Below are positions 15,001-18,000 of a DNA stretch of 40,488 nucleotides, piece after piece. The first letter of the stretch is position 1, and each line of letters opens with the position of its first letter. The DNA is taken from the IMG/VR virus record IMGVR_UViG_2700989521_000020. One strand, given 5' to 3'. The position numbers were made by a program. Source of the DNA: a virus. Lineage: Duplodnaviria; Heunggongvirae; Uroviricota; Caudoviricetes.

Positions 15001-18000
15001 TAGATCACGGTTTGCTTGATGGAAGGTTGACAACTCATAAGAAATTAAATTTATTAATAAGACTCATTAAATTTTATGTTAGATTTGCAAGATGACAGGA
15101 AACAAAATATTAGGAGCAATAAAAAAAACAGGAGCAGCATTAATGTTTATTATTCTGCTGATCTTTGTAAAGATAATTGCAACTGAGTTCGGTGATAATA
15201 AAATTGATGATATTTTATCAAACAAAGAAGATGCAGATAAAATTGCCTCATACTTAAAAAATGAACTATCCAAGAAAAAATTCCCTATTAAAGTAGATGA
15301 TTATACTACATGGATTGCTGCAACCGTAGAAGGAAATACACTTAATCATTACTATAATATTTATGGGATTAATGAAGATATGTCGCCATTTTTTGATGGT
15401 GAAGAGATTAAAAACTTAATGAGCCTAGAAATACAAAAAAAATTAAATTCTGTCGAGTGTAAAATGATGCAGGAGTATAATTATACATTCAAATATCATT
15501 ATAACATAATAAACACGAAATATAATGACTTAGTTATAATTATGACAAAGAGTAATTGTCCACAATGAAGGGGATGCATATGGATAACTCAAAACTGAAG
15601 AAAATGCTTATTGCATCTATTATCGGAAACATACTTTTAGTTTTTTTAAATATTCAAGTGTTCAACCAAAAACACTCCTCAAACGTCATAGACACACAAA
15701 AAAAAGAGGATAAAAGTAAGTGGACTGATATAGAAAACATTTATCCTGTGTGTAAGGTTCACAATAATAACACATCTTATAGCGGGCAATTAAAGCCAGA
15801 ATGGTACTGTTATTGGTTTAATCCAATAACATACAAATACACATATTTAGAAAAGACTCTGATAACATCACCCAGTGATGGTGTTTTCTATTTTTCGAAC
15901 GAGTATACACCAACTATTGAATTACGTCATAAAGCAAGTGACATAAGTGTTCCTGTTGATATATATGCCAAACAATTATTAGACCGACTGGAACGTGAAT
16001 CAAATGCTAAAATTTTTCTACCTAAGGAGGCCAAACAGATAAAAAGTAAAAAGTTGGAAAAATGGACTTCATTTATTACAGTTATTCCCAAAGACAATTC
16101 AAAGGATATAGAGACTTTTCTTTTATCTTTCATTAAAAAGGAAGAGGTTTTATGGACGGTTTTCGTTGAATACCCAAATGATGATAAAAAGTACTGGTAC
16201 ATTGATGAGAAGACATTTGATCTAATAGATAAGATAACCAGTACTTTTTGATGCGACTATCTGGCGGGGATTAAATACTATATGCACCGTATTTATTATC
16301 CCCTTTTTCTGACGGGATACAGTACATAACGAACAATATAAAGCCACCAATATACGGGATGCACCAGATAAACAAGTACCAGGCACTTAACCCAATATCA
16401 TGGAGTCTGCGGACTTTCAATGTAATGGATGGAATAATCGTAGCTAATACGTAAACGCAAGGTATATAAAACCCATAACTAATGCCAGTATTATCTAATG
16501 TATATCCGATAAAAAAAAGAACTCCCAAGAATATTAAATTAAACAGATAATACCACCAGAACTCTCTTCGACTGGCTCGCCCTGAATAATTGAAGTAGTT
16601 ATTAAAAAGAACATCCGTATACCATGCCAAAGGGGATTTTCTCATGCTTTTATACTCCAAACATTAATATTAAATTGATGATTATTAACAACTTAAAACA
16701 ACGTTAATGTTTTACCTAATAGGGTGTCAACATCTACACAAGGAAATGTTGACACACCACACATTCTGTCGGATACTCTGCGTCAGGTGCTCAAAACACC
16801 TTAGCAAGTAGCGGTTACCGCGCCCGACAGACATGCGGTTTTTTTTGTGTCCAGTCTTCTTGGTTTATGACCGGGCGTGCGGCTAATACAATACCAGCAA
16901 TGGGAATATGCCCGCCGACTACTTGCGGTTTTGAGCGCCCGGTCACCCTCTCAAAAGGGGTAAATCAAAATATCAAGTAGGACACAAAGCATGAAAACCA
17001 TCTCCGTGGAGTCCCTCTCCATAATTTCATTTAGTAATATACCTGTGGTGACTACAGAGCTTCTTGCCAGCTTATATGGCACAGAACCAGATTACATCCG
17101 AAAAAATTTCAATCGGAATTCTGGACGATTTGTTATCGGTAAGCACTACTTTTTACTTGAGAATGAGGAGTTGCGCGAATTTAAGCACAGCATGTCTTTA
17201 AGACCTTCTGTGAAAATCGCCCGTAACGTTCGCTCCCTCATCCTCTGGACAGAACGCGGAGCAGCCCGTCACGCAAAAATGCTCGAAACTGATCAGGCAT
17301 GGGAAGTGTTCGAAAAACTGGAAGACTGCTATTTCAGCCAGGGAAAAACAACACAAACCGAACAGCAGTCGCATATTCAGCCACAATTCACAGCCGAGGA
17401 AATCATCCTCCTTTGCTACATGCAGCTCTGGATGGAAAAAGCCCAGGGCATCAGCAAACACCTGTACCCCATTATGAAAGAGCTGAACTCCTCATACACG
17501 AACAAGCTGTATGACATTGCGTTTGAGACTATCTACATGGTGACGAAGAACAGAGACGCGCTACTGAGGGAGGTAACACGTCTCGACATGTCAAGTTCCG
17601 TTGTCCAGAGGGCCATGCCAATGCTGAAAAGCCTGCGGGCAAGACAATTTGAATTCTGAAACCAAAGGAGCTTCGGCTCCTTTTTTGTTGGGAAAATCCA
17701 GTGAGAGGGAATAATGAACCAGACTATCTTCCTCCGAAGTAAGCAGCAGCAACAATTCGCCATTAACGCAATCCTTGCAACAACTCTCGATAAAGACAAA
17801 CCCGTTACGATCCGCATCACCGATTACAAGCGTAATCTCGCTCAAAATGCAAAATTTCACGCGATGGTCGCTGATATCTCCCGACAGGTTCAGTGGTGTG
17901 GCAGGTGGCTAAAACCAGAACAGTGGAAAGTTTTGTTGATCAGCGGTCATGCCGTGGCGACAAAACAGGAAGCCGATGTTTTACCTGGTCTTGAAGGCGA

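Follow-up and report, generated by a model that had tools for sequence, protein, structure and literature searches.

A rare DUF805-containing membrane cassette of lambdoid prophages with a possible role in superinfection exclusion

Membrane proteins that mediate superinfection exclusion are known from several phages and include SieA of P22, whose gene lies next to the immI/ant region, gp15 of HK97, and Imm together with Spackle of T4. Autonomous accessory units of prophages are called morons, in the sense of Hendrix and colleagues. Here, we analyzed an AT-rich three-gene unit of this type in a caudovirus genome of 40,488 nucleotides (IMG/VR record IMGVR_UViG_2700989521_000020), which is referred to as the window. 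The unit, termed the cassette, consists of g1 (15092-15568, plus strand, 158 residues), g2 (15580-16251, plus strand, 223 residues from its ATG), and a convergent gene for a DUF805 protein (16271-16645, minus strand, 124 residues). Region 15020-16700 was 100% identical to the Shigella phages POCJ13 and 75/02 Stx, the only two matches among 50,697 phage records; both are Shiga toxin 1 (Stx1)-converting, 933W-like lambdoid podoviruses (Sepvirinae). All three products are predicted to be small inner-membrane proteins, and the unit is very probably an accessory membrane cassette that acts at the inner membrane or in the periplasm. That it serves superinfection exclusion or defense specifically is the reading we favor, and it is put forward tentatively.

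The extent of the cassette was defined by comparison with related DNA. On the left, homology to L004 and L005, two Logan contigs from independent samples, started at position 14994, the outer edge of the HigB open reading frame (ORF), and took in 98 nt upstream of g1 including a TTGACA hexamer. On the right, the DNA from 16773 on matched, at 98% identity, the ant region found in many Stx2 phages without the cassette. Phage PhiR5_2, for which the record lists E. coli K-12 MG1655 as host, shares the backbone of the window on both sides of this region: on the left, the block that extends from the replication genes to DUF4145 and HigBA, and on the right, the block from ant to the nin genes. Homology to the window ended at 14981 and resumed at 17210, and positions 14982-17209 were replaced by 482 unrelated bp, with HigB followed directly by Ant. 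Because of these three boundaries, the cassette was placed at approximately 14995-16772, a length of ∼1.8 kb. Its left end is formed by the 5' region of g1 (14995-15091, plus strand) and its right end by the upstream region of the DUF805 gene (16646-16772). A 17-nt imperfect inverted repeat (14979-15020, 82% complementary, 8-nt spacer) was observed exactly at the left edge, immediately 5' of the TTGACA of g1.

The GC content of the cassette was 0.315 compared with 0.477 on either flank. The 500-bp segments covering 15001-16500 (0.278, 0.314, and 0.342) were the three lowest of 80 in the window, the next lowest being 0.386, and a deviating composition was likewise found for the cassettes of L004 and of the divergent prophage L016. 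The cassette occupies at least three different sites: the P-nin slot of Sepvirinae-like prophages, a location close to the integrase end in another lambdoid prophage (L003 and L006-L013), and, in L004, a position following a cI-like repressor and a restriction system (Eco57I/BsuBI-PstI). The initial annotation had described an AT-rich island of moron type beside HigBA, and the composition as well as the placement in a variable slot that adjoins toxin-antitoxin genes agree with this description. Together with the presence or absence of the unit between collinear related phages, these data give good support to the conclusion that the cassette is a clean insertion/deletion and a dispensable, horizontally mobile, AT-rich accessory unit.

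Conservation of the three genes as a group was seen in L016, which was found by scanning IMG/VR with the g1 alignment. L016 carries g1, g2, and the DUF805 gene in the same order, orientation, and tight spacing at 28, 33, and 45% protein identity, respectively, with a GC content of 0.31-0.33 in the cassette versus 0.47-0.50 in the flanks. Its g2 homologue keeps both cysteines and the motif CxW[FV]NPxTxKY, and its DUF805 homologue scored 105.8 bits. The flanks of L016 contain a PIN/Phd toxin-antitoxin pair rather than HigBA and a Rha-type regulator rather than Ant. Because the flanking module and the regulator differ, it is the trio itself that is conserved and not its surroundings. The initial annotation had let its proposal hinge on a co-conserved neighborhood, and the trio, retained at 28-45% identity in L016, provides one.

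Natural variants of the cassette were informative with regard to its composition. L004 and L005 have g1 (66% identity) directly followed by the DUF805 gene, and g2 (window 15570-16265) is replaced by 66 nt with a GC hairpin. A precise deletion has removed the g1 coding sequence in L022, which is closely related to L016, and the upstream region is joined to g2 and the DUF805 gene. The DUF805 gene was present in every configuration seen and is the only gene common to all cassette forms, which points to it as the constant component. The idea of a tight g1-g2 unit with DUF805 as a bystander, as first proposed, did not hold: g2 is missing in L004 and L005, L022 lacks g1, several E. coli carry a frameshift in it, and DUF805 is the constant member of the forms seen. 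The pair was found together with DUF805, as in the complete trio of L016, and an obligate pair is contradicted by the forms in which g1 or g2 is individually absent and DUF805 is present. In L016 (∼6640-6770, minus strand) and in the same region of L022, a 43-residue ORF (MKKIAAMILILAFGAISVNAIACPKGTHPHGGTGSHHKGGTCY) with a signal peptide and a His/Gly-rich mature part containing two cysteines was observed just upstream of the DUF805 gene and in its orientation; no counterpart exists in the cassette of the E. coli type.

The same variants bear on a different interpretation, a membrane abortive-infection or toxin-like module. In such a module, the DUF805 protein would depolarize or permeabilize the cell when triggered, g1 and g2 would act as periplasmic sensors or inhibitors that restrain it, in loose analogy to RexA/RexB of lambda, and convergent transcription would cause mutual interference. 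The DUF805 product is a small three-helix membrane protein, its gene converges on g1-g2 with 19 nt between the stop codons of g2 and DUF805, and toxin-antitoxin modules surround it in every context. However, DUF805 persists with either partner missing or truncated, which is hard to square with a required antidote. DUF805 paralogues occur widely on chromosomes and are not known to be toxic, and no PADLOC abortive-infection model matched. We regard a module of this type as quite unlikely.

The DUF805 protein was assigned by a full-length Pfam match (PF05656, E 1.5e-30, 106.3 bits versus a cutoff of 25.7, profile positions 1-111 of 111). Kyte-Doolittle segments at residues 28-51, 58-78, and 86-111 correspond to three hydrophobic helices, as expected for the polytopic membrane protein that had been annotated. 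According to the positive-inside rule, an N-in/C-out topology is predicted. The best conserved parts, the N-terminal GRASRREFWW motif, the RRLHD loop, and the third transmembrane (TM) helix, are predicted to be cytoplasmic or within the membrane. The gene is unannotated in the GenBank/RefSeq records of POCJ13 and 75/02. The closest chromosomal copies found in enterobacteria by tblastn were ∼34% identical, and YhaH/YhaI of E. coli are among the chromosomal members of the family. In the portion of the literature mentioning DUF805 that was retrieved by full-text search, no function was reported for the family.

The protein encoded by g1 (PHROG 19308) has a positively charged, lysine-rich N terminus and a single hydrophobic segment within residues 6-36, which is predicted to be a signal-anchor or signal peptide, in the latter case with a candidate cleavage site after Ala30, followed by an extracytoplasmic alpha/beta domain. 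The hydrophobic stretch contains an invariant Lys27 and is followed by ExFG. Two cysteines, Cys123 and Cys156, are retained in the closer enterobacterial relatives. Despite a weak Shine-Dalgarno sequence, the start at 15092 is supported because the 17 N-terminal residues are conserved at the protein level in homologues of 66 and ∼30% identity. The POCJ13 and 75/02 records start g1 at an internal ATG (15143), 51 nt too far downstream; in E. coli chromosomes annotated by the Prokaryotic Genome Annotation Pipeline, both the g1 start and the DUF805 gene are correct. A word-indexed search of 5.8 billion clustered proteins returned two clusters with 91 and 66% identity to g1. An exhaustive hidden Markov model search of 1.84 billion representatives added five credible remote relatives (E 3.5e-11 to 1.7e-5), two of them from Salmonella enterica. 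All five share with g1 the motif FP[IV]x[VI]DxxT...G...NxYY and match PHROG 19308 reciprocally. One of the remote relatives, P0012, is read as carrying a lipoprotein signal in place of the anchor.

The second gene, g2 (PHROG 21161), starts 11 nt after g1 and is preceded by the Shine-Dalgarno sequence GAAGGGGA. Its product has one hydrophobic helix of ∼20 residues within residues 5-29, preceded by lysines, and is predicted to be a type II bitopic membrane protein with a periplasmic domain of ∼190 residues. The TM helix is polar and conserved (Asn17, Asn24, and Gln26) and has no plausible cleavage site. Cys58 and Cys77 are invariant, and the protein has the motif CxW[FV]NPxTxKY. Only two full-length clusters (97 and 52% identity) and a fragment were found among the 5.8 billion clustered proteins, even with a profile, and the known forms comprise two E. 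coli alleles and the L016/L022 type. In deep comparisons, the N-terminal segment and the rest of the protein showed 39 versus 33% identity for g2 and 30-34 versus 27-29% for g1. A retained anchor is a better fit than a disposable signal peptide, because these segments are at least as conserved as the remainder. Both proteins are thus predicted to be N-terminally anchored, with conserved Cys pairs in periplasmic domains.

The reading frames, the 11-nt gap, and the TTGACA hexamer were found as first described, and hydropathy and sequence agree with the anchor-like N terminus and two cysteines noted for g1 and with the single N-terminal TM helix noted for g2. The lack of a recognizable family for either protein was confirmed as well. 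Searches of Pfam, NCBIfam, and PADLOC were empty or below threshold, profile searches against the PDB sequences were empty, and per-member scans at E <= 10 gave no consistent weak family. A Foldseek search of BFVD with a poor structure model gave no match, and the searched literature contained nothing on these genes. Several candidates were rejected. For T4 Spackle (PF25676), one remote relative of g1 gave E 0.037, below the cutoff, and the hhalign probability for the family was 1.25%. For the XAC2610-related immunity family (NF047539), the score was 14.2 bits versus a cutoff of 35, and only one of eight g1-family members matched. A relationship of g1 and g2 as paralogues was discarded at an hhalign probability of 1.8%.

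Purifying selection was indicated by the ratios of nonsynonymous to synonymous substitution rates (dN/dS) of 0.27-0.45 for g1, 0.32 for g2, and 0.16-0.48 for the DUF805 gene. Because homologues at 28-66% identity keep the frame and dN/dS is 0.16-0.48, the three ORFs are real genes rather than open frames that arose by chance in AT-rich DNA. In the comparison of the E. coli type with the L016 type, synonymous sites were saturated (dS >= 2) with dN/dS of 0.16-0.32. A comparison of the window with L007 gave an uneven picture: g1 (dS 0.083) and the DUF805 gene (dS 0.013) were near-identical, and g2 was far more distant (dS 0.91, 56% protein identity) and conserved only in the TM segment (proportions of nonsynonymous and synonymous differences of 0.04 versus 0.38) and in the last ∼15 residues. 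Accordingly, g2 exists as old divergent alleles that are exchanged by recombination between near-identical flanks.

In other isolates, an A8 homopolymer in g1 (15435-15442) is a frameshift site. The change from A8 to A7 cuts g1 to 117 residues with loss of both cysteines in E. coli SW0716xx (Ecuador), in E. coli EC2 (Australia), and in the metagenome contig L030; g2 and the DUF805 gene are intact in all three. The A7 variant reflects either slippage, whether recurrent or inherited, or an error of sequencing common to the three. The cassette is partly decaying. A further explanation is that it would be a functionless AT-rich remnant, acquired horizontally and kept by linkage to the toxin-antitoxin module and the antirepressor. 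Its rarity, the recurring g1 frameshift, the loss of g1 or g2 in some lineages, and the fairly relaxed dN/dS would fit such hitch-hiking DNA. However, reading frames, motifs, Cys pairs, order, and orientation have been kept past synonymous saturation between the E. coli and L016 types with dN/dS well below 1, and the deletions of g1 and g2 are precise and leave the remaining genes and signals intact. A mere remnant is, in our judgment, the most improbable of the explanations considered.

Two convergent transcription units, g1-g2 on the plus strand and DUF805 on the minus strand with a hairpin between them, are predicted. The TTGACA at 15027-15032, which resembles a -35 element, is conserved in L004 and L006. 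Between DUF805 and ant, a perfect 10-nt inverted repeat, GTGTCAACAT-N12-ATGTTGACAC (16724-16755), carries TTGACA on each strand and has the appearance of an operator that serves two divergent promoters. The repeat is retained in L004 and L006 and missing from L016 and L022. The hexamer upstream of g1 and this repeat are considered candidate promoter elements only. A promoter-like site with 10 of 12 matches was found at 16749-16777 (plus strand). At the 3' end of g2, a symmetric hairpin (16186-16249; minimum free energy -21.7 kcal/mol, z -2.6) has perfect arms of 13 nt and a U-run after the stem on either strand, and it may act as a bidirectional terminator for the two convergent units. Hairpins between the convergent genes occur in all variants: L007 has the same structure with one mismatch, L016 has a perfect 13-nt inverted repeat in the gap between g2 and DUF805, L022 has an 8-nt repeat, and the counterpart in L004 is a GC hairpin as read from the sequence. 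The leader between the cassette and ant matched the Rfam family sRNA-Xcc1 (RF02221; 16869-16952, plus strand, 79.6 bits versus a gathering cutoff of 53, E 3.8e-13), and parts of this leader align across L004, L006, and L016.

Gene orientation and neighborhood could also be taken to indicate a role in the phage's own cycle, for example in the timing of lysis, the release of virions, the injection of the genome, or the choice between lysis and lysogeny, the last in concert with the adjacent antirepressor. In every context, the cassette directly adjoins an Ant, AntA, or Rha gene, and g1-g2 is oriented like the early rightward operon. Against this role, the closely related PhiR5_2 has no cassette, the DUF805 gene is antisense to the early operon, and a complete lysis cassette is present at 25125-27394. 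An assignment of g1 and g2 as a spanin pair (Rz/Rz1) or as lysis genes was rejected, as they have no lipobox cysteine and the window contains lysis genes of its own. A function in the phage cycle is accordingly rated as very improbable.

The distribution of the cassette is narrow. It was found in 8 of 5,426 complete E. coli genomes, even at blastn sensitivity, and neither on plasmids nor among the GTDB species-representative genomes was a match obtained; JGI metagenomes yielded only E. coli copies of the same cassette. Besides the Stx1 phages, the carriers include non-Stx prophages from wastewater, urine, and commensal isolates. These data are relevant to lysogenic conversion for host fitness, for which Bor and Lom of lambda are the model. 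The cassette would then change the envelope physiology of the host (stress tolerance, permeability, colonization, or virulence), and any effect on phages would be incidental. Such a role is suggested by the finding that a Stx1 phage associated with a pathogen carries an AT-rich accessory unit for envelope proteins, by the lack of a match to any defense family, and by the family DUF805 itself, which is mostly chromosomal and seldom found in phages (18 of 50,697 records, of which several are host-like fragments), pointing to a cellular rather than an anti-phage role. On the other hand, the few genomes and the variety of sources reveal no obvious link to a niche or to virulence, and the neighbors are toxin-antitoxin and restriction genes and not virulence genes. 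We consider host fitness an unlikely primary role.

Superinfection exclusion is preferred because of the genomic company of the cassette (toxin-antitoxin modules, a restriction system, and DUF4145), its moron-like properties, the topology of its products, and the precedent of P22, HK97, and T4. The defense-like context consists of the HigBA-like module, a DUF4145 gene with a weak match to PD-T7-4, and the restriction system in L004. We propose that lambdoid prophages acquired the cassette in a variable slot that lies between the antirepressor gene and a toxin-antitoxin or restriction module, and that it would be expressed from the prophage. In this model, the membrane core would be formed by the DUF805 protein. 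Two separate partners facing the periplasm, g1 and g2, each of them optional, would dock on it via their conserved N-terminal helices. As our committed guess, the module would alter the inner-membrane/periplasmic face of the lysogen such that superinfecting phages would be unable to complete genome entry. The divergent g2 alleles might then correspond to different targets. In its boldest form, the proposal would make DUF805 proteins membrane hubs and the cassette an unrecognized modular exclusion or defense system of prophages, in which a DUF805 core would be combined with g1 and the divergent g2 alleles as exchangeable specificity modules in the periplasm; this generalization is speculative, and we would not expect it to be correct.

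Several observations weigh against exclusion. PADLOC-DB 2.0 contained no family for g1, g2, or DUF805 at E <= 0.1, and the PHROG matches of g1 and g2 were confined to their own unknown-function families 19308 and 21161, with no annotated exclusion PHROG. The AlphaFold2 models, both built from three-sequence alignments, reached a mean predicted local distance difference test score (pLDDT) of 49 for g2 and a pLDDT of 47 for g1, too poor to assign a fold or to support the proposed complex. The promoter scan detected no consensus sigma-70 promoter upstream of g1 or DUF805 and no consensus -10 element; the conserved TTGACA is a candidate -35 element. The rarity of the cassette speaks against a strong general benefit, and g1 is frequently inactivated. 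Selection on the cassette genes (dN/dS 0.3-0.45) is more relaxed than on the adjacent HigBA genes (0.04-0.06), and diversifying selection on g2 is not supported, as dS is also high (0.91). Finally, the comparison of configurations and linkage was based on only ∼4 independent lineages.

Other features of the window were recorded along with the cassette. To its left, the gene order is DnaC-like loader, DUF1627, DUF977/LygF, DUF4145 (minus strand), a small ORF, a helix-turn-helix antitoxin (minus strand), and a Gp49/RelE-type toxin (minus strand), in line with the adjoining HigBA and DUF4145 genes of the initial annotation. From g1 rightward, it is g1, g2, DUF805 (minus strand), Ant (ORF6N and P22_AR_C), NinB and the nin genes, Q, and stx1AB. 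The DUF4145 protein (13314-14060, minus strand, Pfam E 1.2e-8) had a weak PADLOC match to PD-T7-4 (E 0.0017, 15.8 bits) and may be a defense gene in its own right. The lysis cassette comprises a holin (25125-25415), an endolysin (25420-25953), and an Rz-like spanin (26957-27394). Three antirepressor-like genes were counted: Ant (16991-17659) and two Ant/Rha-type genes on the plus strand, one between endolysin and Rz (26228-26800) and one after Rz (27597-28139). Just 3' of stx1B, a match to the Rfam small RNA STnc100 was found (22155-22368, plus strand, 195 bits, E 3.6e-45). An ORF of 673 residues (37852-39873, plus strand) has a long region of collagen-like Gly-X-Y repeats, which account for both the GC maximum (0.67-0.70) and the pronounced AT skew of positions 38501-39500.

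Prophage accessory cassettes are a main source of new exclusion and defense mechanisms and of traits that affect the fitness of pathogens. The cassette described here occurs in Stx1-converting phages that infect Shigella and E. coli, is composed wholly of proteins without known function, and connects DUF805, a large orphan family, with two new families of periplasmic proteins via a neighborhood conserved down to 28-45% identity. Its small size (1.8 kb), the natural single-gene deletion variants, and the cassette-less sister phage make a clean genetic test easy. A phenotype would provide the first function for DUF805, and its absence would leave one more rare orphan moron. Should DUF805 proteins indeed be hubs, the cassette would open this large family, with its chromosomal YhaH/YhaI-type members, to functional study for the first time.

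In comparison with known systems, the likeness of g2 to VirB8, NTF2-like, and cystatin-like bitopic periplasmic proteins is a fold-level hint only, given the mean pLDDT of 49, and g2 has neither sequence similarity to VirB8/NTF2-like proteins nor a secretion-system context. The DUF805 gene of the window resembles its family in the full-length domain, the three TM helices, and the GRASRREFWW and RRLHD motifs; it differs in being prophage-borne, AT-rich, and linked to two genes for periplasm-facing partners. With RexA/RexB of lambda, the cassette would share prophage expression, a membrane-based mode of action, and the combination of a polytopic protein with one or more partners. There is no homology, however, and the partners in the cassette are predicted to be periplasmic rather than cytoplasmic and are individually dispensable. 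SieA of P22, gp15 of HK97, and Imm and Spackle of T4 are likewise small inner-membrane or periplasmic products of accessory genes, P22 sieA also adjoins the antirepressor region, and T4 Imm and Spackle set a precedent for one membrane and one periplasmic component. The cassette has no sequence relationship to these exclusion proteins, and a three-gene DUF805 architecture is undescribed for any of them. An orphan membrane moron in a lambdoid prophage is a familiar category; the g1 and g2 families and the DUF805-centered architecture are new.

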